This document shows positions 8,983 through 33,431 of a stretch of 34,578 nt of DNA, piece after piece (the first letter of the stretch is position 1; every line of letters starts with the position of its first letter). The stretch is from a virus. The notes below the pieces were generated by a model. That model was not told the origin of the DNA. It made no database searches and saw nothing but the letters and a program-made list of their open reading frames with translations. The stretch lies in UHGV virus genome UHGV-0107442. One strand, given 5' to 3'. The translations under genes were made by a program, and so were the position numbers.

Positions 8983-10164
8983 ATGAAACTGACTGAGCTA
9001 ACTATAAACGGTATCGGGGGGATAAAGTCCCTGTACGTAAAATTTAGGCCTGACATGAATATTATATGTGGGCCTAACGGAGTTGGAAAATCCACACTCT
9101 TGCTTGCTGCCTCCTTTCCTTTTCTTCATGGATACACTAATAGAATAAAACGCAATGTCACTTCTGAAACAGGAAGTGTTAGTCTAATAATAGAAGATAA
9201 TTCTGTTAACTTTAATTCAGTATTAGATGTTAACGTTCATTTGCCTACAGAAACAATTCACAACTTTAATAATAACGGATTTGATAAGAGGAAACTAATA
9301 AAATTTGAAATATTACGTAACTTTGATTATAAACATCTTGAGGCGTTGAATGCAGATAAATCACTATCCGATGATGCTGTTTCGCAACAGATTAATTTAG
9401 GTGTCAATTTACATGATATCAAGGATTGGTTTGCTAAGAGGGATTTGTTTGAAAAAGTAGATAATGGTTACGGTCCTAATACGATAAAAAATATACATCT
9501 TGCAAGGGAGTGTATATCAATTTTAAACCCTCAGTTTTCTTACAATCGCGTCGATCCTAAATCTTACGATATTTTTGTAAATACCCCGACCGGGGTAATA
9601 TGGTATGAATATCTGTCCTCGGGATTCAAATCATGTATGAGTCTCCTTCTCGGTATTATTAAAGAGATCGAGCTTCGTTATCCGGAGAAAGATATTTACG
9701 CCCAAGAATTTGATGGAGTGATTCTTATCGATGAAATTGAGCTTCATTTGCATCCTGAGTGGCAGGCAAGAATCACTGAAGCCCTTACGACAACATTTCC
9801 ATCAGCACAATTTATTGTCACAACTCACAGCCCACATGTAGTACAGAATGCAAAACCACATCAGATCATTGCGTTAGTACCAGATAATGATGGCACAGTG
9901 AGAGTAAAAGAACTTCCTGAAAATGGCTTGGGTTATTCTGCCTGGACAGTTGAAGAGGTTTTGTTAGATGTAATGGGGATGGAAAGCACTCTCAGTAGAA
10001 AACTACAAGAACTACTTGATAATTTCGAACGTTTTGTTGATGAAGAAAATTTCGACAAGGCGAAAGAAATTTATGATTATTTGGATATGGCATTGCATCA
10101 AAACAGTATTCTTCGTAAATCTCTTAAAATAAGCCTGATGTCAATTCGAGAGAGAGAAGAGTAA
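8983..10164 (+). CDS. ABC/SMC-like P-loop ATPase, Septu PtuA-like
   Basis: ORF 8962..10164 begins with GTG; ATG at 8983 follows AGGAA. Walker A GPNGVGKST, Walker B VILIDEIELHLHP, then TTHSP. 393 aa; the stop abuts the start of the HNH gene. About 33% GC versus about 52% in the phage backbone. Confidence 0.8.
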   Translation: MKLTELTINGIGGIKSLYVKFRPDMNIICGPNGVGKSTLLLAASFPFLHGYTNRIKRNVTSETGSVSLIIEDNSVNFNSVLDVNVHLPTETIHNFNNNGFDKRKLIKFEILRNFDYKHLEALNADKSLSDDAVSQQINLGVNLHDIKDWFAKRDLFEKVDNGYGPNTIKNIHLARECISILNPQFSYNRVDPKSYDIFVNTPTGVIWYEYLSSGFKSCMSLLLGIIKEIELRYPEKDIYAQEFDGVILIDEIELHLHPEWQARITEALTTTFPSAQFIVTTHSPHVVQNAKPHQIIALVPDNDGTVRVKELPENGLGYSAWTVEEVLLDVMGMESTLSRKLQELLDNFERFVDEENFDKAKEIYDYLDMALHQNSILRKSLKISLMSIREREE

Positions 10165-10165
10165 A

Positions 10166-10912
10166 ATGATTAAGCTTGAACGGAACTTTATTCCTGATTT
10201 TTTTACTCGTGTTGATCTTCTATCTTTAACTCAGGAGTTTAAAGATAATGGAACATCTGTTTGGCATCATCCGGAAGTAAAATCGGCATGTCTAAAATTA
10301 AGTAATGGCAAATGTGCATTTTGTGAGGTCAAGCTTGAAGAGGCTAGCACCTATAATGAAATTGAGCATTTTAAGGATAAAAAAAATTTCCCTGATGATG
10401 TTATTAGATGGGAAAATCTCCTTCCTTCATGCCGTCACTGTAATGGTTCAAAACAACGCCATAATGTTGTACTCAATCCTATAATAAATCCATGCAACGA
10501 TTTACCGTCAGAACACCTTTATATGATAGGGTATCGTATTAAAGGTAAAACTGATTTAGGTAAAACAACAGTGGATGTTTTAAACTTTAATCACAGGGAG
10601 CACAAGTTTATACCGCGTTGTAAAGCAGGGGAACTTATAGATAGCAGTATTGATGACGCAATAGAAAAACTTAATTGGTTTAATGAGAATCCAAGTACTA
10701 GACGTAAAAACATTCTTATGAATCTAGTCGAGGCAATATTAGGTGAGTGTCAGAAAACATCTCCCTTTTCTGCAGTATCAGCAACAATGCTTCATCGTTC
10801 AGTCGAATATTCTTATCTGAAAGAAACCATGCAGATGCAAGGATTATGGTCAGATTATATGCAGGAACTTCATGATGAATCTTTGAGCCTGACGTTACCG
10901 TCAATTCGCTAG
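10166..10912 (+). CDS. HNH endonuclease, Septu PtuB-like
   Basis: 248 aa with CAFCE...EIEHFKDKKNFPDDVIRWENLLPSCRHCNGSK (CxxC...H...N...CxxC HNH core). ATG 10166 is 1 nt after the ATPase stop. Confidence 0.8.
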   Translation: MIKLERNFIPDFFTRVDLLSLTQEFKDNGTSVWHHPEVKSACLKLSNGKCAFCEVKLEEASTYNEIEHFKDKKNFPDDVIRWENLLPSCRHCNGSKQRHNVVLNPIINPCNDLPSEHLYMIGYRIKGKTDLGKTTVDVLNFNHREHKFIPRCKAGELIDSSIDDAIEKLNWFNENPSTRRKNILMNLVEAILGECQKTSPFSAVSATMLHRSVEYSYLKETMQMQGLWSDYMQELHDESLSLTLPSIR

Positions 10913-10938
10913 TTAATACAGTTTTGCCCATAAAAGCT

Positions 10939-10974
10939 AAACGTTCAGATATTCTTGGCTGAACGTTTGATTTT
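10939..10974 (+). terminator. Rho-independent terminator after the HNH gene
   Basis: Stem AAACGTTCAG (10939..10948), 10-nt loop, CTGAACGTTT (10959..10968), followed by GATTTTAT. Confidence 0.6.
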
Positions 10975-11257
10975 ATGAAGACGATAAGCAGATTGGGCCC
11001 GAGTGAGTATCTCGGGAAAATAAACCATTTACATACTATGTTTAACGTTCAAAGCACACCTCAAGCTTTCTTAGTTCTTCTGCTTCGATATATAAACGGT
11101 CATTTGGTTACGAACATTCACTTCTCCCCTAAGTGCATGGCTATGCTGCATGAGATCGCATGACCGTTTGAGGAGCGTTGTAACGCAGGCGTGCCAGTTG
11201 TGACGGACTTTTTCGTATGTTATGCACCTGCATGAAAACCATTGCACAAAGCGGGCA

Positions 11258-11284
11258 GGCGTGGCGGGGATACGAGCGCGCGCT
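11258..11284. other. cos-like sequence (P2/186-type cohesive-end site)
   Basis: GGCGTGGCGGGGA at 11258..11270 matches the first 13 nt of the 186 cohesive end (GGCGTGGCGGGGAAAGCAT as remembered) and 12 of 13 of P2. The following GCGCGCT also resembles sequence next to P2 cos. The last 6 nt of the 19-mer differ, so this is not certain. Confidence 0.45.
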
Positions 11285-11378
11285 AACTCATAAATCCTAG
11301 ATTATTAGTGGATTTATCTCATTGAAATGTGCACTATTCCCAGCATTGAGTTGTACCAGATGTCTTTATGGAGGGACT

Positions 11379-13145
11379 GTGGCTTTTGTAACTGATATTC
11401 GGCTTGAAGATAATGCTATTGCTGCACCTGCGACAGCACAGGTTATGGCTCAGAGGCTAGGATCTGTATTACGTAAGAGATATGAAGAATTCATCCATAA
11501 AAGAGAGTGTGCACCAGGCCAAGCAGACTATGATGTAAAAATGGCTAGCAGGGCTTTAGCTGCATTCACTATGTATCAGTTAGGATGTGTGGATGATAAG
11601 TATGCAGGGGAGTCTGTATGTGATAGTAGTGAAGATGGTGGTATAGATGGAATAGCAATCAACCATAACGAAAAAATCGTTGTTGTTGTTCAATCAAAAT
11701 TTCACCAATCGGGAAACGGCACTTGGACAAGAGCCGATTTTATGTGTTTTAAGGATGCTTGTGAGAAGCTACAAAGTGAAAGATACGAATTATTTGATTC
11801 CATATTGCAAAATAAAAGCGGGGAAATAAGTGCGGCTTTAAGTAGTTTTGAATACAAGTTCATCTTTGCGATGGCGCATACAGGTAAAAAAGGTGCTGCA
11901 GAGGAAATATTAAATGATATGCGGGAATGGCAATATCAATTAAACGCTGCAGCTTTTACACCTGAGGATGAGCCTAAAGAGAACTGGGGATTTCAGGTTC
12001 ATTTAATATCCTCTGAAGATATGATGCATTGGTTACAGAATGGCTCTCGAAATCAAATTGATCTTAACAGGGTTGAAATTGAGCGTTTTGGATTTTTGAA
12101 TGAACCATATCAAGCTTTTTACGGGGCTATTAGTGGTGATCAAGTTGCAGAATGGTGGGAAGAGCATGGTGCTCGATTATTTACAAAAAACATAAGGAAT
12201 ATGCTTGGTAAAACAGAAGTGAATGAGGAAATAAAAAAGACAGCTATAGATAATCCTGATATGTTTTGGTTTTATAATAATGGGATTACTGTACTGGTTA
12301 AGGAGGTTGTTCCTCATAGACGAAACGCAGCTCCTAATATAGAGAGAGGGATTTTTGATTTTCGTGATGTAAGTGTCATTAATGGTGCACAAACAGTCAG
12401 TAGTATTGGCGCATGTAAAGATGCGCTTGGTGAAAACATATATAGACTCAAAGTGCCAGCCAGATTCATTGTTATAGATGATGATACTGATAATTTAACT
12501 GCAAATGCGATTACAAAAGCTAACAATTTCCAAAATAGAGTATTGGGAAGAGATTTTGCGTCGCAGCAGGCAGATCAACATAGATTGGCAAGGGAGTTAG
12601 TGCTTGAAGGATATCAATATCAGTTACTAAGAACAGATGAAGATCATTCACAGACAAATACGAAAGTCATTGACTTGGATGAGGCGCTCAATGCACTCGC
12701 ATGTTTAAGTAAAAATAATACGGTTGTATCGACACTAAAATCAAATCGCGGTAGGTTTTTTGAAAATTTTGAAGGCTCTCTATATAAAACTATTTTCAAT
12801 CCAAGATTAAGTGGTTTAAAACTTATCAATACTGTTCTACATTTTAGAGTTATAGATAAGTTGATCGGTAAAACATTACTATCAGTAGATAAAACTACCC
12901 ATAGTCGCAAGCATTTAATTATTACGCATGGTAATAGATACTATGCGTCTGTGCTATTGAGCAACGTTTCTGGGATACATAATAGCTCAGAAATTCTTGT
13001 TCCAGATGAAAAAAATCTTTCAGAAGAATTAAGTGCATTAATTCAACGTGCTGAAGAGTACATTGAAGATAATTACCCGAATGCCTATCCGGCAAGATTT
13101 TTTGCAAATCCAACGAAAATACAAGAGTTATACGATAATGTTTAA
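11379..13145 (+). CDS. AIPR-family (abortive-infection phage-resistance) protein with an N-terminal PD-(D/E)xK-like nuclease motif
   Basis: ORF 11322..13145 begins with TTG. Start uncertain: GTG 11379 (GGAGGG 3 nt upstream) or ATG 11445. N-terminal DSSEDGGIDGIAI...VVVVQSKF resembles Mrr/restriction-endonuclease-like D...QxK. Central WFYNNGITVLV...VINGAQT matches the AIPR hallmark as remembered. AT-rich. Confidence 0.7.
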   Translation: MAFVTDIRLEDNAIAAPATAQVMAQRLGSVLRKRYEEFIHKRECAPGQADYDVKMASRALAAFTMYQLGCVDDKYAGESVCDSSEDGGIDGIAINHNEKIVVVVQSKFHQSGNGTWTRADFMCFKDACEKLQSERYELFDSILQNKSGEISAALSSFEYKFIFAMAHTGKKGAAEEILNDMREWQYQLNAAAFTPEDEPKENWGFQVHLISSEDMMHWLQNGSRNQIDLNRVEIERFGFLNEPYQAFYGAISGDQVAEWWEEHGARLFTKNIRNMLGKTEVNEEIKKTAIDNPDMFWFYNNGITVLVKEVVPHRRNAAPNIERGIFDFRDVSVINGAQTVSSIGACKDALGENIYRLKVPARFIVIDDDTDNLTANAITKANNFQNRVLGRDFASQQADQHRLARELVLEGYQYQLLRTDEDHSQTNTKVIDLDEALNALACLSKNNTVVSTLKSNRGRFFENFEGSLYKTIFNPRLSGLKLINTVLHFRVIDKLIGKTLLSVDKTTHSRKHLIITHGNRYYASVLLSNVSGIHNSSEILVPDEKNLSEELSALIQRAEEYIEDNYPNAYPARFFANPTKIQELYDNV

Positions 13146-24413: not shown

Positions 24414-25801
24414 GCACAAAATTTTATACCCTGCTGACGGATATTGGCGCGGCGAAACTTGCCAGCGCCGCCGCGCTCGGTGTGCCGCTAAAAATTACCC
24501 ATATGGCGGTGGGCGATGGCGGTGGAGTATTGCCAACGCCGGACGCAAAGCAGACGGCACTGGTAAATGAGAAACGCCGGGCTGCGCTGAATATGCTTTA
24601 TATCGACCCGCAGAACAGCAGCCAGATTATTGCCGAACAGGTGATCCCTGAAAACGAGGGCGGTTGGTGGATACGTGAAGTGGGCTTGTTTGATGAGTCC
24701 GGGGCATTGATTGCCGTGGGCAACTGCCCGGAAAGCTATAAGCCGCAACTGGCTGAAGGTAGCGGGCGCACTCAGACCGTGCGCATGGTGCTGATTACCA
24801 GCAGCACGGACAATATCACCCTGAAAATCGACCCTGCTGTAGTGCTGGCAACCCGCAAGTATGTGGATGACAAGGCACTGGAGCTGAAGGTGTACGCGGA
24901 TGATCAGATGGCAAAACATCTTGCCGCACCGGACCCGCATTCACAGTACGCGCCAAAAGCCAGCCCGACATTTACCGGAACCCCCAAAGCGCCAACGCCA
25001 GCGGCGGGGAATAATACCACGCAGGTTGCGACCACTGCGTTTGTACAGGCGGCACTGACGGCCCTTATTAATGGTGCGCCAGCCACGCTGGACACGCTGA
25101 AAGAAATAGCCGCAGCCATTAACAATGATCCGAATTTCAGTACCACCATTAACAATGCGCTGGCACTAAAAGCACCGTTGTCGAGTCCGGCACTCACCGG
25201 AACGCCAACAGCCCCCACGGCGGCGCAGTCGATCAACAATACACAGATTGCCACTACGGCTTTTGTGAAATCGGCGATTGCAGGAATGGTGGGTTCTGCA
25301 CCTGCTGCACTGGATACACTGAACGAACTGGCGGCGGCACTGGGGAATGATCCGAACTTTGCCACGACAATGCTTAATGCGCTGGCAGGTAAACAACCGC
25401 TGGACAATACGCTTACCAATTTGAGTGGAAAGGATGTAGCTGGTCTTCTCACATACCTTGGTTTGGGAGAAGCCAGATATGTCATTCAGCGAGGAGCTAA
25501 TGTCAATGGTGCATGGATACGCTGGTCAGATGGTGCAATAGAAGTATTTGGAACTGGTGGTTCCAATGATAATGGGCTGGCTAAAGTCGTTTATCCAATT
25601 GCACTACCTAAGCTTTCACGTTTTATCAGCATAGCGGAAAGAATAAGAACAGATTACGAGGCCACACCTAATAACGTTCACGTTTCAATGATCGTGGATG
25701 ACCAGGTCAGTAATACAGGTTTTTATGTCCGCTGCCAGATGTACGACGGAAGACCATCAACAAGTGCTTTTTCCTGGAGAGTTTATTGTGCGCCTGTTTA
25801 A
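24410..25801 (+). CDS. H: Tail fibre protein (P2 gpH-like constant N-terminal region plus variable C-terminus in the current orientation)
   Basis: 463 aa. Two tandem copies of a roughly 70-aa repeat (...TGTPKAPTPAAGNNTTQVATTAFVQAAL...DTLKEIAAAINNDPNF... and ...TGTPTAPTAAQSINNTQIATTAFVKSAI...DTLNELAAALGNDPNF...). The inversion crossover site lies inside the gene at 25458..25478 (encodes GLGEAR). Confidence 0.85.
   Translation: MSTKFYTLLTDIGAAKLASAAALGVPLKITHMAVGDGGGVLPTPDAKQTALVNEKRRAALNMLYIDPQNSSQIIAEQVIPENEGGWWIREVGLFDESGALIAVGNCPESYKPQLAEGSGRTQTVRMVLITSSTDNITLKIDPAVVLATRKYVDDKALELKVYADDQMAKHLAAPDPHSQYAPKASPTFTGTPKAPTPAAGNNTTQVATTAFVQAALTALINGAPATLDTLKEIAAAINNDPNFSTTINNALALKAPLSSPALTGTPTAPTAAQSINNTQIATTAFVKSAIAGMVGSAPAALDTLNELAAALGNDPNFATTMLNALAGKQPLDNTLTNLSGKDVAGLLTYLGLGEARYVIQRGANVNGAWIRWSDGAIEVFGTGGSNDNGLAKVVYPIALPKLSRFISIAERIRTDYEATPNNVHVSMIVDDQVSNTGFYVRCQMYDGRPSTSAFSWRVYCAPV
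25458..25478 (+). repeat. Left inversion crossover site, inside H
   Basis: Identical to the reverse complement of 26894..26914. Confidence 0.7.
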
Positions 25802-25985
25802 TCCTGTTACTTTGACTGAAGTAATCCCCGGTCTTCATGACGTGACCGGGGCTGTGGAATTACCAGAAGATAACTGGTTTTTTACTGCATCTGAAATCCC
25901 TGAAGGAATGGAAATATCTGTTAACGAGAAGGGCGAACCCATTCTGATTGAGATTAAACCATATCAGGTGGAACTGGCCAGATAA
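25788..25985 (+). CDS. Small ORF after the active fibre C-terminus; putative tail-fibre assembly/chaperone protein (65 aa)
   Basis: GTG 25788 follows GGAGA at 7-nt spacing and overlaps the H stop. Function assigned by position (equivalent to U of Mu-type invertible segments); no motif recognised. Confidence 0.4.
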   Translation: MRLFNPVTLTEVIPGLHDVTGAVELPEDNWFFTASEIPEGMEISVNEKGEPILIEIKPYQVELAR

Positions 25986-26220
25986 CCCCCGGCGCGGTGC
26001 TGGTATCTGCTTCCATCACCGCGTCGATATTACCAACATCATATTCAGTCATTTCCGGTTCCGGTGGTGCTATAAACTCTCCGTCAGAATAGAACCAACC
26101 GACGCCTGCATCTATATGATCAATATTTATAATTTCGCAGTTAGAGAATAAATCACCCTCTCCATCCCAGATAATAATATTTTTCACCACGCCATGTTCA
26201 ATCAGAGCAAAATTACTCAT
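25954..26220 (-). CDS. Small ORF of the alternative cassette; putative tail-fibre assembly/chaperone protein (88 aa)
   Basis: ATG at 26220 (-) overlaps the stop of the alternative fibre C-terminus (ATGA). Convergent with the ORF at 25788..25985, as expected for an invertible segment. Confidence 0.5.
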   Translation of the reverse strand: MSNFALIEHGVVKNIIIWDGEGDLFSNCEIINIDHIDAGVGWFYSDGEFIAPPEPEMTEYDVGNIDAVMEADTSTAPGVIWPVPPDMV

Positions 26221-26954
26221 CAGGCATACTCCTCAACAATAACTATTCCCGGGGCACCGTCACCTCCCGATTGAGCCTCACTTCCAGCAGGTGCGCAGGC
26301 TCCGCCTCCGCCAGAACCAAAGCCCTCAGCTTTACCACCACCACGTCCGCTGAATGATGAAGAACTTGCACCACCTATACCGCCTGAACCTAATGGTGTA
26401 TCCCCCCCGTTACCCCCTGCTACAGCTTTAACAGAGATAACCATTGCTCCTGGTGTTTTTGCACTACAGCGAAATGCTCTTAGTACAGTACCGGACGATG
26501 TCGGACTGGCACCCCGTGAAATACCCTGAATATATGATGTGTTTGCAGATGCTCCCCCCGCGCCACCGCCTGTACCACCAGGTGCAGTTATCATGGAACC
26601 GAAATAAGTTGTGCCACCTTCACTACCTGAATTTCTTCCGGCTCCCCCCCCTTTACCTGCAGCACCGATAATAACGTTGACTTCGAAATCATTATCAACC
26701 TCGAAAAATGCTTCAATAAATGCGCCGCTCAATCCAGCTCCGGCTGTTGCCTGCTGATTTTCTGTTGTTTCAGGAACCCCACCGCCGCCGCCACCGCCAC
26801 CAGAGGCAATGACCCTTATCTTTTTTGTCCCTGGTGTTGGGATATATTTTCCAGAGCTTTTAAAAATATTCGTGTTTAACAAACGACCAGAGAATCTGGC
26901 TTCTCCCAAACCAACGTTTAAGAAAATGCAGAGGTAACAGCTAACTGGCATCAT
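26220..26954 (-). CDS. Alternative, glycine-rich tail-fibre C-terminal cassette (silent in this orientation)
   Basis: The minus-strand ORF encodes VGLGEARF at the crossover site (26894..26914), in frame with the same GLGEAR encoded in H. Inversion would fuse about 230 aa of Gly-rich sequence (runs such as GGGGGGGG, GGTGGGAGG) to the H constant part. The first 14 codons before the crossover are probably not part of any real protein. Confidence 0.65.
   Translation of the reverse strand: MMPVSCYLCIFLNVGLGEARFSGRLLNTNIFKSSGKYIPTPGTKKIRVIASGGGGGGGGVPETTENQQATAGAGLSGAFIEAFFEVDNDFEVNVIIGAAGKGGGAGRNSGSEGGTTYFGSMITAPGGTGGGAGGASANTSYIQGISRGASPTSSGTVLRAFRCSAKTPGAMVISVKAVAGGNGGDTPLGSGGIGGASSSSFSGRGGGKAEGFGSGGGGACAPAGSEAQSGGDGAPGIVIVEEYA
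26901..26926. repeat. Right inversion crossover site (gix/hix/cix-like)
   Basis: TTCTCCCAAACC-AA-CGTTTAAGAAAA: two 12-bp half-sites around a 2-bp core, resembling remembered hix/gix sites (for example TTCTTGAAAACC-AA-GGTTTTTGATAA). Confidence 0.6.
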
Positions 26955-26981
26955 CTCCGGTTTTTATTCAGGGGGATGATC

Positions 26982-27548
26982 ATGCTTATTGGCTATGTAC
27001 GCGTGTCAACAAATGACCAGAACACCGATTTGCAACGTAATGCACTGAATTGCGCGGGATGTGAGCAGATTTTTGAGGACAAAATCAGTGGCACTAAGTC
27101 CGACAGACCGGGGCTGAAAAAACTACTCAGGACACTATCGGCAGGAGACACGCTGGTTGTCTGGAAGCTGGACAGGTTGGGGCGCAGTATGCGGCATCTT
27201 GTTACGCTGATAGAAGAGTTGCGCCAGCGTGGTGTGAATTTCGGAAGCCTGACTGACAGTATTGATACCAGTACCCCAATGGGCCGTTTCTTTTTTCATG
27301 TCATGGGTGCCCTGGCTGAAATGGAACGCGAACTGATAGTTGAACGTACCAGGGCAGGGCTGGCTGCAGCTCGTGCCAAAGGCAGAGTAGGTGGACGCCG
27401 TCCTAAGTTGACCACCGAACAGTGGGCACAGATTGGGCGTTTACTCGAGGCCGGAGAATCAAGACAGCGTATTGCACTGATTTTTGATGTAGGCGTTTCT
27501 ACCATTTATAGAAAATTTCCGGCAAATAAGATCAATGAATCCCCCTGA
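26982..27548 (+). CDS. Serine recombinase, DNA invertase (Hin/Gin/Cin/Pin family)
   Basis: MLIGYVRVSTNDQNTDLQ... with the catalytic-serine motif (VRVSTNDQ) and a C-terminal HTH. ATG 26982 follows AGGGGG; an alternative ATG at 26976 is in frame. Confidence 0.85.
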   Translation: MLIGYVRVSTNDQNTDLQRNALNCAGCEQIFEDKISGTKSDRPGLKKLLRTLSAGDTLVVWKLDRLGRSMRHLVTLIEELRQRGVNFGSLTDSIDTSTPMGRFFFHVMGALAEMERELIVERTRAGLAAARAKGRVGGRRPKLTTEQWAQIGRLLEAGESRQRIALIFDVGVSTIYRKFPANKINESP

Positions 27549-28872: not shown

Positions 28873-29388
28873 ATGGCTTTACCACGCAAATTAAAACACC
28901 TGAACCTGTTTAACGACGGGAACAACTGGCAGGGGATCGTTGAGTCGCTGACGCTGCCGAAATTTACCCGCAAATATGAGAAGTATCGCGGCGGCGGAAT
29001 GCCGGGTGCGGTGGATGTGGATCTGGGGCTTGATGACAGTGCGCTGGACACAGAATTTTCCATTGGTGGTACTGAATTGCTGCTGTTTAAACAGATGGGT
29101 AAAGCCACGGTGGATGGCATCCAGCTGCGCTTTACCGGCTCTATTCAGCGTGACGATACCGGGGAAGTGCAGGCCGTGGAGCTTGTCGTGCGTGGACGTC
29201 ACAAAGAAGTGGATTCCGGCGAGTGGAAGACGGGCGAAAGCAACACCACCAAAGTGACCAGTACCAACAGCTACGCGAAGCTGACCATCAATGGTGAGGT
29301 GCTCTATGAAGTGGACCTTATCAACATGGTGGAAATTGTGGACGGTGTGGACCTGATGGAAGCGCACCGCAACGCCCTCGGCCTCTGA
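28873..29388 (+). CDS. FII: Tail tube protein (P2 gpFII family)
   Basis: 171 aa (P2 FII is 172 aa), directly after the sheath gene. Confidence 0.9.
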   Translation: MALPRKLKHLNLFNDGNNWQGIVESLTLPKFTRKYEKYRGGGMPGAVDVDLGLDDSALDTEFSIGGTELLLFKQMGKATVDGIQLRFTGSIQRDDTGEVQAVELVVRGRHKEVDSGEWKTGESNTTKVTSTNSYAKLTINGEVLYEVDLINMVEIVDGVDLMEAHRNALGL

Positions 29389-29442
29389 TATATCTGAACG
29401 GCGCGGGATACCGCGCCAGAACCCAATTGACAGGACAGCAAA

Positions 29443-29745
29443 ATGAGCGATAAGCAGACTGAAAAGACCATTCAACTGGATACCCCCATCAAGCGCGGTA
29501 AAACAGAAATCACCGAAATTGTGCTGCGTAAACCGCAGTCCGGTGCGCTGCGCGGTACACGCCTGCAGGCCATTATGGATATGGATGTAAACGCGATGAT
29601 GACCGTGATCCCCCGCATCTCCAGTCCGGCACTGACTGCACAGGAAATTGCAGAGATGGACCCGGCAGATCTCACTGCCATGTCGGTTGAGGTTGTCACT
29701 TTTTTGTTGAAGAAGTCGGTGCTTGCCGTTTTACCGACAGCCTGA
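29443..29745 (+). CDS. E: Tail assembly chaperone E (P2 gpE family)
   Basis: 100 aa. Contains the slippery heptamer T_TTT_TTG at 29700..29706, 13 codons before its stop. Confidence 0.85.
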   Translation: MSDKQTEKTIQLDTPIKRGKTEITEIVLRKPQSGALRGTRLQAIMDMDVNAMMTVIPRISSPALTAQEIAEMDPADLTAMSVEVVTFLLKKSVLAVLPTA

Positions 29746-29879
29746 CGGTTGACGATCTGGTGGCAGATATCGCCACCATTTTTCACTGGCCGCCATCCGT
29801 TACTGACGTTATGCCGCTGACCGAAGTGCTGGAATGGCGGTATAAAGCGATTCAGAGAAGCGGGGCCAACGATGAGTGA
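29443..29879 (+). CDS. E+E' fusion produced by programmed -1 ribosomal frameshift
   Basis: After a -1 slip at 29700..29706 the new frame is open from 29706 to TGA at 29877..29879. It encodes VEEVGACRFTDSLTVDDLVADIATIFHWPPSVTDVMPLTEVLEWRYKAIQRSGANDE and ends just inside the start of T, as in P2 E/E'. Confidence 0.65.
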
Positions 29880-32800
29880 TAACAACCTGCGTCTGCAGGT
29901 CATTCTTAATGCGGTTGACAAGCTCACCCGCCCATTTCGATCTGCGCAGGCCAGTTCAAGAGAACTGGCTGCTGCTGTCAAAAAATCCCGCGATGCAATA
30001 AAGCAGCTTGATCAGGCCGGGAGCAGTCTGGACAGCTTCCGAAAGCTGCAGGCAGAAAATCAGAAATTAGGCGACAGGCTGAACTATGCCCGCCAGCGTG
30101 CAAATTTGCTCAGTCAGGAACTGGGAGCGATGGGGCCGCCTTCGCAACGTCAGGTTGTTGCTCTGGGCCGTCAACGGCTGGCTGTTCAGCGTCTGGAAGA
30201 ACGCCAGAAAAAGCTGCAGCAGCAGACGGCGCTTGTGCGTGCTGAACTGTACCGGGCGGGAATTTCTGCGAAAGACGATGCGGGAGCAACTGCCCGTTTA
30301 GCCCGTGAAACATCACGTTATAACCAGGAACTTTCGAAACAGGAGGCGCGGCTGAAGCGATTGGGGGAAGCTCAGCGTAGGATGAATGCAGCGCGTGCCA
30401 GTTATGCCCGTTCGCTGGAGGTGCGTGATCGTATTGCAGGTGCCGGAGCCACCACCACGGCTGCAGGGCTGGCAATGGGTGCGCCAGTGATGGCGGCAGT
30501 AAAAAGCTATACCAGCATGGAAGATGCCATGAAAGGTGTGGCAAAGCAGGTCAATGGTCTGCGTGACGATAATGGCAACCGCACTGCACGTTTTTATGAA
30601 ATGCAGGATGCCATCAAGGCTGCCAGCGAACAGTTGCCGATGGAAAACGGTGCGGTGGACTTCGCTGCACTGGTTGAAGGTGGTGCGCGCATGAACGTCG
30701 CAAACCCTGACGACAGCTGGGAAGATCAGAAACGTGACCTGCTGGCCTTCGCCAGTACGGCAGCAAAGGCGGCAACAGCCTTTGAGCTGCCAGCGGATGA
30801 ACTGTCAGAAAGTCTGGGGAAAATCGCCCAGCTCTACAAAATCCCCACCCGCAATATTGAACAGCTCGGTGATGCGCTGAACTATCTGGATGATAACGCC
30901 ATGTCGAAAGGGGCAGACATCATTGATGTGATGCAACGTCTGGGCGGTGTGGCTGACCGTCTGGATTATCGTAAAGCGGCGGCGCTGGGTTCCACCTTCC
31001 TGACACTGGGCGCTGCGCCAGAGGTTGCAGCCAGTGCAGCAAACGCGATGGTGCGTGAATTGTCCATTGCCACCATGCAAAGCAAGAGTTTCTTTGAAGG
31101 GATGAATCTGCTGAAACTCAATCCTGAAGTGATTGAAAAGCAGATGACGAAGGATGCGATGGGAACCATCCAGCGCGTGCTGGAGAAGGTAAACGCGCTG
31201 CCGCAGGACAAGCGCCTGTCTGCCATGACTATGTTGTTTGGTAAAGAGTTTGGCGATGACGCGGCGAAACTGGCAAACAACCTGCCGGAACTGCAGCGTC
31301 AGTTAAAACTGACAGCGGGCAATGATGCGCTTGGCTCCATGCAGAAAGAATCCGACATTAACAAGGATTCACTTTCTGCGCAGTGGTTGCTGGTCAAAAC
31401 CGGAGCGCAGAACACCTTCAGCAGCCTGGGCGAAACGCTGCGCCAGCCGCTGATGGATATTCTGTACACGGTGAAAAGCGTCACGGGGGCGTTGCGTCGC
31501 TGGGTGGAAGCTAACCCGGAACTGACAGGCACACTGATGAAAGCATCGGCTGTTGTGGCTGCGGTTACCGTCGGCCTCGGCACCTTAGCGGTGGCGCTGG
31601 CTGCAGTGCTGGGGCCGCTGGCAGTGATCCGTCTGGGATTCTCTGTGTTGGGTATCAAAACGTTATCTTCCGTTACGGCAGCAGTAACTCGAACCAGCAG
31701 CGCGTTGTCCTGGCTGGCTGGCGCACCACTGGCACTGCTGCGACGCGGGCTTGCTTCATCGGGCAACGCCGCAGGTTTACTTACTGCGCCGTTGTCGTCT
31801 TTGCGCCGCACGGCATCACTGACGGGAAATGTCCTGAAAACTGTAGCAGGTGCGCCGGTTGCACTTTTGCAGTCTGGATTATCCGGTTTACGTGCTGTTG
31901 CTGTGATGTTTATGAATCCTCTGGCGGTACTGCGCGGTGGACTGGCCGCCGCAGGCACGGTGCTGCGAGTACTGGCATCTGGTCCACTGGCGATGCTGCG
32001 CGTTGCCCTGTATGCCATATCTGGTCTGTTAGGTGCTCTGCTCAGTCCGATAGGTCTTGTGGTTACTGCACTGGCGGGCGTGGCGCTGGTTGTCTGGAAA
32101 TACTGGCAACCCATCACCGCATTTCTCGGTGGCGTGGTGGAAGGATTCAAAGCGGCGGCAGGTCCCATCAGTGCAGCGTTCGAACCGCTTAAGCCCGTGT
32201 TCCAGTGGATTGGCGACAAAGTGCAGGCGCTGTGGGGCTGGTTTACTGATCTGCTGACGCCCGTTAAGTCGACCTCTGCCGAACTGCAGAGCGCAGCGGC
32301 AATGGGGCGGCGATTCGGGGAGGCACTGGCGGAAGGGCTGAATATGGTCATGCATCCGCTGGACTCCCTGAAATCCGGCGTTTCCTGGTTGCTGGAGAAG
32401 CTCGGCATTGTCAGTAAAGAGGCCGCAAAGGCAAAACTGCTGGAAAGCGTGACGCGTCAGCAACCTGCGACGGTGAATGCAGACGGTAAAGTGATGATTC
32501 CATCGGGTGGTTTTCCGTCATGGGGATATGGCTTTGCGGGGATGTATGACAGCGGCGGCTATATCCCGCGCGGGCAGTTTGGCATCGTCGGTGAAAACGG
32601 GCCGGAAATTGTTAACGGCCCGGCAAACGTGACCAGCCGGAGAAATACAGCTGCACTGGCTGCCGTTGTCGCCGGAATGATGGGCGTTGCTGCCGCGCCA
32701 GCAGAGCTTCCACCGTTGCACCCCTTGGCACTTCCCGCGAAAGGTGGAGAAGCAATTGTGAGTCGCGCAGCCACTGTGCCGCTCGTTCAACGGATTGAGG

Positions 32801-32949
32801 CACCGACGCAGATCATCATTCAGACGCAGCCAGGACAAAGTGCGCAGGATATTGCGCGGGAGGTGGCACGCCAGCTTGATGAACGTGAACGCAGGCTGAA
32901 GGCAAAAGCCAGGAGTAACTACAGCGATCAGGGGGGATACGACGCATGA
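29872..32949 (+). CDS. T: Tail tape measure protein (P2 gpT family)
   Basis: 1025 aa; coiled-coil N-terminal region and Ala/Gly/Leu-rich hydrophobic repeats in the C-terminal half. Confidence 0.9.
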   Translation: MSDNNLRLQVILNAVDKLTRPFRSAQASSRELAAAVKKSRDAIKQLDQAGSSLDSFRKLQAENQKLGDRLNYARQRANLLSQELGAMGPPSQRQVVALGRQRLAVQRLEERQKKLQQQTALVRAELYRAGISAKDDAGATARLARETSRYNQELSKQEARLKRLGEAQRRMNAARASYARSLEVRDRIAGAGATTTAAGLAMGAPVMAAVKSYTSMEDAMKGVAKQVNGLRDDNGNRTARFYEMQDAIKAASEQLPMENGAVDFAALVEGGARMNVANPDDSWEDQKRDLLAFASTAAKAATAFELPADELSESLGKIAQLYKIPTRNIEQLGDALNYLDDNAMSKGADIIDVMQRLGGVADRLDYRKAAALGSTFLTLGAAPEVAASAANAMVRELSIATMQSKSFFEGMNLLKLNPEVIEKQMTKDAMGTIQRVLEKVNALPQDKRLSAMTMLFGKEFGDDAAKLANNLPELQRQLKLTAGNDALGSMQKESDINKDSLSAQWLLVKTGAQNTFSSLGETLRQPLMDILYTVKSVTGALRRWVEANPELTGTLMKASAVVAAVTVGLGTLAVALAAVLGPLAVIRLGFSVLGIKTLSSVTAAVTRTSSALSWLAGAPLALLRRGLASSGNAAGLLTAPLSSLRRTASLTGNVLKTVAGAPVALLQSGLSGLRAVAVMFMNPLAVLRGGLAAAGTVLRVLASGPLAMLRVALYAISGLLGALLSPIGLVVTALAGVALVVWKYWQPITAFLGGVVEGFKAAAGPISAAFEPLKPVFQWIGDKVQALWGWFTDLLTPVKSTSAELQSAAAMGRRFGEALAEGLNMVMHPLDSLKSGVSWLLEKLGIVSKEAAKAKLLESVTRQQPATVNADGKVMIPSGGFPSWGYGFAGMYDSGGYIPRGQFGIVGENGPEIVNGPANVTSRRNTAALAAVVAGMMGVAAAPAELPPLHPLALPAKGGEAIVSRAATVPLVQRIEAPTQIIIQTQPGQSAQDIAREVARQLDERERRLKAKARSNYSDQGGYDA

Positions 32950-33431
32950 TGATGGTGCTGGGATTGTACGTGTTTATGCTGCGCACCGTTCCGTATCAGG
33001 AACTGCAGTATCAACGCAGCTGGCGACATGCGGCAAACAGTCGGGTAAACCGACGTCCGTCCACGCAGTTTCTGGGACCGGAAAACGACATGCTGACGCT
33101 TTCCGGTGTTCTTATGCCGGAAATAACAGGCGGCAGGCTGTCGTTGCTGGCACTGGAGCAGATGGCAGAACAGGGGAAAGCATGGCCCCTGATTGAAGGC
33201 AGCGGCACGATTTACGGCATGTATGTGATTGAGGGACTGAATCAGACTAAAACGGAGTTTTTCCGCGACGGTATGCCGCGCCGGATTGAGTTCACCCTGT
33301 CGCTCAAACGAGTGGATGAATCCCTGTCCGATATGTTCGGTGATCTCAGTGCGCAACTGAATAATCTGCAGGACACGGCAACGTCTGCCTTAAGCGATAT
33401 CAGTAAAACGGTGGGAGGGCTGCTGTCGTGA
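32946..33431 (+). CDS. U: Tail protein (P2 gpU family)
   Basis: 161 aa; overlaps the T stop and the D start. Confidence 0.85.
   Translation: MMMVLGLYVFMLRTVPYQELQYQRSWRHAANSRVNRRPSTQFLGPENDMLTLSGVLMPEITGGRLSLLALEQMAEQGKAWPLIEGSGTIYGMYVIEGLNQTKTEFFRDGMPRRIEFTLSLKRVDESLSDMFGDLSAQLNNLQDTATSALSDISKTVGGLLS

Follow-up and report, generated by a model that had tools for sequence, protein, structure and literature searches.

The window analysed here is a stretch of 34,578 nucleotides, the virus genome UHGV-0107442, and the locus of interest lies in its tail operon, where the genes follow the order FI (sheath)-FII (tube)-E-(E')-T-U-D. E and the -1 frame extension E' sit between FII and T, and the E' stop codon overlaps the start of T, as a P2-type layout requires. 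The features of this region, all on the plus strand, are as follows.

28873..29388, plus strand: FII, the tail tube gene, an open reading frame whose identical copy bears the RefSeq name 'phage major tail tube protein'.
29400..29417, plus strand: GC-rich hairpin GGCGCGG-GATA-CCGCGCC in the FII-E intergenic region, found by folding 29389-29442.
29443..29745, plus strand: E, the zero-frame product, a tail assembly chaperone of 100 aa (PF10109, phrog_103).
29689..29692, plus strand: GAGG, a Shine-Dalgarno (SD)-like tetramer and tentative stimulator, recognized by wobble conservation.
29700..29706, plus strand: slippery heptamer T_TTT_TTG, the predicted shift site, read directly and the same in P2.
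29706..29879, plus strand: E', the -1 frame extension, 57 codons and a TGA (PF06528).
join(29443..29706, 29706..29879), plus strand: predicted E+E' fusion coding sequence, 145 aa, from direct reading and Pfam.
29707..29745, plus strand: overlap of the E tail (LKKSVLAVLPTA, then stop) with the beginning of E', both frames read.
29715..29738, plus strand: 6-bp hairpin GUCGGU/ACCGAC, tentative and weak, found by folding, after an 8-nt spacer from the heptamer.
29872..32949, plus strand: T, the tape measure gene, an open reading frame of 1025 aa whose ATG overlaps the E' stop.

In the reading of the window's open frames, E begins at ATG 29443 and ends at TGA 29743-29745, giving 100 aa. The E-frame codons at the site are GTC ACT TTT TTG TTG, which places the heptamer in the X_XXY_YYZ phase, and its final codon, TTG at 29704, stands 13 codons ahead of the E stop. 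From G29706 the -1 frame holds 57 sense codons (VEEVGACRFTDSLTVDDLVADIATIFHWPPSVTDVMPLTEVLEWRYKAIQRSGANDE) and closes at TGA 29877-29879, within the string ATGAGTGA that also contains the T start at 29872. The first-pass annotation had described a T_TTT_TTG 13 codons before the E stop and a -1 frame open for 57 codons to a stop just inside T; the first proved exact to the base (29700-29706), and the second agrees with the stop at 29877-29879 and the T start at 29872. Across the junction, the predicted E+E' would read ...VVTFLVEEVGACR, also written ...SVEVVTFLVEEVGACR, and its tryptic junction peptide would be ISSPALTAQEIAEMDPADLTAMSVEVVTFLVEEVGACR.

Both parts of the predicted fusion belong to known tail families. 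E matches PF10109 (Phage_TAC_7, described as tail assembly chaperone E/41/14) over residues 9-88 with E=1.1e-18 and 67.5 bits, the cut-off being 25, and matches phrog_103 with E=9.6e-44. The -1 extension matches PF06528 (Phage_P2_GpE) with E=5e-19 and 67.9 bits, the cut-off being 23, in a match that spans only the last 37 residues of E'. Each Pfam match thus lies above its curated cut-off in its own frame, the two stand side by side on the 145-aa fusion, and PHROG tail families likewise match both the E part and the E' part. An NCBIfam scan of E, E' and the fusion returned no family, a PDB sequence search with the fusion found nothing at E<=1, and the AlphaFold2 model of E+E' from a 26-sequence alignment was unusable (mean pLDDT 51, pTM 0.46, below 50 in the E' part). 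At the DNA level, prophages in several E. coli chromosomes are 100% identical to the region, and about a fifth of complete E. coli genomes (1033 of 5426) match it; the Salmonella phages RE-2010 and SEN8 (Felsduovirus) and one Yersinia phage reach 84-86% identity.

The arrangement extends well beyond these close copies. A protein-pattern scan with one genome per species yielded 40 loci, from Escherichia to Pantoea, Erwinia and Hafnia, and 38 of them, together with the window, the identical E. coli copy and three phage records, make up a set of 43 sequences. All 43 loci carry TTTTTTG/A at the same codon, followed by an open -1 extension of 57-64 aa. Viral contigs were scanned by E' motifs only, with search patterns that do not include the heptamer and are blind to it, and 569 relatives were confirmed; TTTTTTG/A is present in every one of the best 80 of these 569, and the 57-58-codon extension is complete in 79 of those 80, the remaining contig ending before the E' stop. 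A tblastn search aligned the fusion to 80 viral contigs across 434 nt, split between two frames, and among 50,697 phage records tblastn gives a two-frame match in 425, including phages of Burkholderia, Ralstonia, Pseudomonas, Vibrio, Mannheimia and Acidovorax.

Twelve of the distant relatives, which lie at 39-51% identity, were opened. TTTTTTG is kept in P2, phiCTX, KL3, Ralstonia RS-AB1, Acidovorax Alfacinha3, PSP3 and ENT90. The remaining five have a different X_XXY_YYZ heptamer at this position: TTTTTTC in Vibrio MAR, TTTTTTT in Zymomonas, G_GGA_AAG in Mannheimia, C_CCT_TTC in Klebsiella ST16-OXA48phi5.4 and A_AAT_TTT in E. coli phage 503458. All twelve sites open into a -1 reading frame with the motif [MV]AD[IV]A..FHW.P. 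The predicted slippery character and its phase are retained in the distant relatives despite the change in sequence. The first-pass annotation had counted a lack of conservation of the extension as evidence against its reading; an open -1 frame is found in all relatives examined.

Patterns of variation within the close relatives indicate which frame is read on either side of the E stop. Upstream of the site, the column entropies of the three E-frame codon positions in 38 distinct close sequences are 0.38/0.18/0.97; beyond the E stop (29746-29871), those of the -1 frame are 0.25/0.09/0.65. The variability of third codon positions thus shifts from the E frame to the -1 frame once E has ended. 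From this pattern we conclude that the -1 frame is translated there and is under purifying selection. Within the 12-codon overlap itself, close relatives show no stronger conservation of the -1 frame than of the E frame (1250 summed pairwise amino-acid differences vs 903 in the E frame); frame conservation in the overlap was therefore dropped as an argument and replaced by the comparison with P2 and Hafnia. In that comparison the length of the E tail varies by lineage (6, 12 or 22 codons) and the spacing of E' is kept, with 18 residues to the conserved motif in both this phage and P2, 10 of the 18 identical.

The heptamer is conserved beyond what its codons demand. Across 98 distinct sequences its synonymous positions (NNT TTT TTR) are invariant: the codon before TTT specifies T, G, I, S or D, yet always ends in T; Phe is always TTT; and Leu is always TTG or TTA, never CTN. 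In the same sequences, Val wobble positions nearby hold three or four different bases. This synonymous invariance indicates selection on the RNA sequence itself.

It is the homology and conservation just described, and not the motif, that give the site its significance. TTTTTTG occurs 20 times on the two strands of the window, for which dinucleotide shuffles expect 9.5 +/- 2.7, and the 40 genes of the window contain 36 in-frame X_XXY_YYZ heptamers where 37.9 are expected; judged by the window count and the 40-gene count, the heptamer is not a significant signal by itself. By our own calculation, moreover, a frame of 57 codons would stay open in random sequence with a probability of roughly 6%. 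Such numbers would suit a heptamer and open frame that arose by chance, or a decayed relic without function, but the Pfam match of the -1 frame (E=5e-19), its wobble periodicity and the retention of the arrangement in more than 120 loci (123), reaching other proteobacterial classes, refute this explanation and leave it a negligible probability.

For only 2 of the 36 in-frame heptamers does the -1 frame extend beyond the zero-frame stop, and the E site is one of them. The other, G_GGG_GGA at 32931-32937, is in phase five codons before the T stop; it is the Shine-Dalgarno sequence of U, and its -1 frame is the frame of U (32946..33431). A T-U fusion through slippage at 32931-32937 is conceivable.

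Automated annotation offers a different account of E'. In RefSeq, PGAP places a coding sequence at 29760..29879, 'GpE family phage tail protein'; on this view E' would be made solely as a separate peptide of 39 aa, initiated at GTG 29760, with no frameshift. This codon is indeed a start codon in all 97 distinct close relatives (GTG in 95, ATG in 2), and the restriction of PF06528 to the last 37 residues would agree with such a product. However, the SD match before 29760 is the weakest of those compared, at -3.0 kcal/mol vs -4 to -11 for the starts of FI, FII, E, T, U and D, and the homologous codon is not a start in distant relatives, where it encodes Trp (Vibrio MAR), Ala (Ralstonia) or Ile (Mannheimia, Acidovorax) while the slippery heptamer is still kept. 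The 18 residues of the -1 frame that precede this codon keep their length and include the 10 identities to P2, whereas the zero-frame tails differ (12 vs 6 codons), and independent initiation leaves the nucleotide invariance of the heptamer unexplained. In addition, the P2 GenBank record gives gpE+E' as a joined coding sequence, and a local hairpin at 29758-29778 may be what keeps GTG 29760 invariant. We regard independent initiation as very improbable, and E' is predicted to be translated only as the C-terminal part of E+E'. The first-pass annotation had expected ORF callers to miss this product: the 145-aa fusion is missed, as anticipated, although the region is not, given the 39-aa PGAP frame from GTG 29760.

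The hairpin at 29758-29778 lies inside E' and resembles a terminator, with the sequence UGGUGGC-AGAUAUC-GCCACCA followed by UUUUU (codons LVADIATIF). In 44 distinct close relatives the wobble positions of its stem are conserved and those of its loop vary, but many relatives have an interrupted U tract (ATC TTT). It is not homologous in P2, where the same 5' arm pairs with a different partner. Given the broken U tract and the missing P2 homologue, we do not treat this hairpin as part of the mechanism; it may be the reason for the GTG at codon 29760 in close relatives.

The homopolymeric nature of the shift site also invites an explanation by slippage of RNA polymerase, in which one extra U in the T6 run would put E' in frame without any slip by the ribosome. 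Database entries suggest that the run can change in length. About 35 single-ORF proteins with both domains are present in the protein database (matches P0001-P0037), and those inspected show the junctions TFFVEEVG, which fits one extra T, or TFVEEVG, which fits two fewer, or else other frame errors and garbled stretches, pointing to a run that is prone to indels in sequencing or replication. The inspected single-ORF 'fusions' fit changes in the length of the T6 run, or long-read or assembly indels at other points of the gene, and do not appear to be true fusions; clusters of the normal 100-aa E have hundreds to more than a thousand members. On the other hand, the bacterial cases of transcriptional slippage reviewed in PMC5009743 involve runs of about 9 A or T, as against 6 here, and the heptamers GGGAAAG, CCCTTTC and AAATTTT of relatives, with a longest homopolymer of 3-4 nt, are tandem-tRNA sites and poor polymerase sites. 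The heptamer also keeps its X_XXY_YYZ phase with respect to the E frame, a property of consequence only to ribosomal slippage. Polymerase slippage is accordingly even less credible than independent initiation, and slippage by the ribosome is the reading we favour.

RNA elements around the site were surveyed on both sides. Upstream, a Glu codon gives rise to GAGG at 29689-29692, with 7 nt between this tetramer and the heptamer. The codon reads GAG in 94 of the 98 distinct sequences, GAA in one and AAG in P2. Other Glu codons in E and E' are mostly GAA, and the wobble sites beside GAGG vary freely. Motifs resembling AGGTG occupy the same place in P2, PSP3, phiCTX and the Ralstonia and Acidovorax phages. 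It is a tentative suggestion, and on balance a doubtful one, that the P2-type shift site may be more than a bare heptamer and include an upstream SD-like stimulator. The published spacing for SD-stimulated -1 shifts is 9-14 nt, and GAGG at 7 nt falls just short of it; if the stimulator were real, its spacing would be shorter than the accepted 9-14 nt window.

Downstream, we found no conserved stimulator. The hairpin at 29715-29738 has a folding energy of -7.2 to -8.7 kcal/mol and is kept in the close clade and lost in P2 and Hafnia, and neither compensatory changes nor covariation were found for it. Folding of 84 nt gives z = -1.66, and the 60 nt downstream fold no better than shuffles (z = 0.05 for the window, -1.29 to +1.55 across 14 lineages). 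RNAalifold on 12 lineages recovered only two short helices without convincing covariation, and Rfam has no match at the site. A conserved 3' stimulator was rejected on the basis of the folding z-scores, RNAalifold and Rfam, in agreement with the description of P2-type sites without hairpins in PMC3091744.

A further hairpin precedes E. Directly after the FII stop, the FII-E intergenic element forms a 7-bp stem with a GATA loop (minimum free energy of 29389-29442, -17.4 kcal/mol), and nearly all relatives, P2, phiCTX and the Vibrio and Mannheimia phages among them, have a hairpin at this position, though the stems are unrelated in sequence. A T run comes after it in the Vibrio and Mannheimia phages, and some of these hairpins are annotated as a terminator. 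The element may be an attenuator, or one that affects mRNA stability, keeping E/T/U/D lower than sheath and tube.

Comparison with P2 is the most direct. The P2 codons at the homologous position are GGT TTT TTG, with an E of 91 aa, an E+E' of 142 aa and an extension of 57 codons ending on the T start, and the figures given for P2 E/E+E' in PMC3091744 are the same as those we computed. The P2 GenBank record (AF063097) contains a joined E+E' coding sequence with the note '-1 frameshift; essential tail protein' and a feature 'site of -1 translational frameshift' directly after the heptamer. The P2 E/E+E' frameshift in the FETUD tail operon was reported by Christie et al. 2002 (J Bacteriol 184:6522), as cited in PMC3091744 and PMC5009743. 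This phage shares with P2 the TTTTTTG at the homologous codon (…[VG]FL), the 57-codon extension, the Pfam families, the gene order and the overlap of the E' stop with the T start (ATGAGTGA in this phage, ATGAGTAA in P2), and unlike these features the E+E' protein is only 47% identical over its full length. The E tail past the site is 12 codons long in this phage and 6 in P2, E has 100 aa vs 91 and E+E' 145 vs 142 aa, and the 6-bp hairpin 8 nt downstream is present in this phage's clade but absent in P2. A P2-like E/E' arrangement had been proposed from the sequence at first pass, together with a comparison of the -1 extension to P2 E'; the Pfam families, gene order, homologous heptamer and conserved extension all agree with it, as do the PF06528 match (E=5e-19) and the full-length alignment of E+E'. 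RE-2010 and SEN8, at 84-85% DNA identity, have identical architecture and heptamer and carry both a 'tail protein E' and a 'tail protein E'', but their E' is annotated as a separate 39-aa frame instead of a joined product, as it is in RefSeq E. coli.

The lambda gpG/gpGT pair provides the wider class, defined by overlapping reading frames and a -1 slip as summarised in PMC3091744 and PMC5009743, and tail-chaperone frameshifts of long-tailed dsDNA phages are described by Levin 1993 and by Xu, Hendrix and Duda 2004, 2013 and 2014, as cited in PMC5009743. As in lambda, two overlapping frames lie between the tube and tape-measure genes with a -1 slip near the end of the first, two products at a fixed ratio would be made, neither expected in the virion, and a 3' stimulator is not needed. 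No sequence similarity to lambda G/T was detected, the Pfam matches being P2-specific families only, and the tail is contractile here and non-contractile in lambda. According to PMC5009743, frameshift efficiency in P2 and its relatives is 2-3 fold above that of lambda G-T; the SD-like stimulator, if real, would account for this difference. The site also recalls the E. coli dnaX/IS cassettes, in which a tandem-slippage heptamer is preceded by an SD-like element (here GAGG, with its wobble G conserved), although the heptamer here is U-rich and not A_AAA_AAG, the SD-like spacing is 7 nt vs the published 9-14 nt, and no supported stem-loop or pseudoknot was found at the 5-9 nt distance 3' of the shift site.

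Taken together, the homology of both parts, the conservation of the heptamer and the shift of wobble variability identify the locus, with high confidence, as the E/E+E' pair of a P2-like prophage, predicted to be made by -1 ribosomal frameshifting and a counterpart of lambda G/GT. For slippage in this prophage, its frequency and the binding partners of the products, we infer from P2 and lambda. Most ribosomes that start at ATG 29443 would stop at 29743-29745 and yield the 100-aa chaperone E. A minority would slip back by one base with tRNA-Phe and tRNA-Leu on TTT TTG (29701-29706), the slipped tRNAs re-pairing with TTT TTT (29700-29705) and decoding resuming at GTT 29706. After 57 further codons these ribosomes would stop at TGA 29877-29879 over the T start codon, giving the 145-aa E+E' with the junction ...VVTFL followed by VEEVG.... 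Classical tandem -1 slippage on U_UUU_UUG would in this way provide E and E+E' from one start.

The roles of the two products may be drawn by analogy with lambda, for which PMC5009743 pairs the shared domain with the tape measure and the extension with the tube protein. By the lambda G/GT analogy and from P2 genetics, the E part common to both products would coat the tape-measure protein T, and E' would bring in the tube protein FII, after which tube and then sheath would polymerise to the length set by T. A fixed slip frequency would set the E : E+E' ratio; in lambda G/GT the corresponding ratio matters for tail assembly.

Two other regions of the window deserve mention. In the region 25446-27548, two 33-nt inverted repeats with 85% complementarity, at 25446-25478 and 26894-26926, enclose a segment of 1.4 kb with tail-fibre and tail-fibre-assembly genes, and an open frame for a Hin/Gin-type recombinase (26976..27548) adjoins the segment. 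The prophage NZ_AP042673.1, otherwise 99.96-99.99% identical, differs from the window exactly between the repeats, and the segment looks like an invertible host-range switch. Between the replication and portal genes, 8983-13145 encodes an AAA ATPase, an HNH endonuclease and an AIPR-family protein, named after the RefSeq annotation of a near-identical prophage mapped with an offset of +391, and looks like a P2-type hotspot of anti-phage defence cargo.

The feature has already been described, in the literature and in the P2 GenBank record since 2002, and is biologically nothing new. The frameshift is routinely annotated by hand in P2, PSP3, KL3 and L-413C, and every RefSeq record inspected has E' as a separate 39-aa frame and leaves the 145-aa fusion unlisted. 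The value of the finding therefore lies in annotation: the region finds a match in 1033 of 5426 complete E. coli genomes, and the fusion is absent from every RefSeq record inspected. The wobble-conserved GAGG and the conserved FII-E hairpin are mildly new, as small leads on expression ratios in the tail operon; if the SD-like stimulator holds true, the FII-E hairpin would be a second layer of stoichiometry control in the operon.
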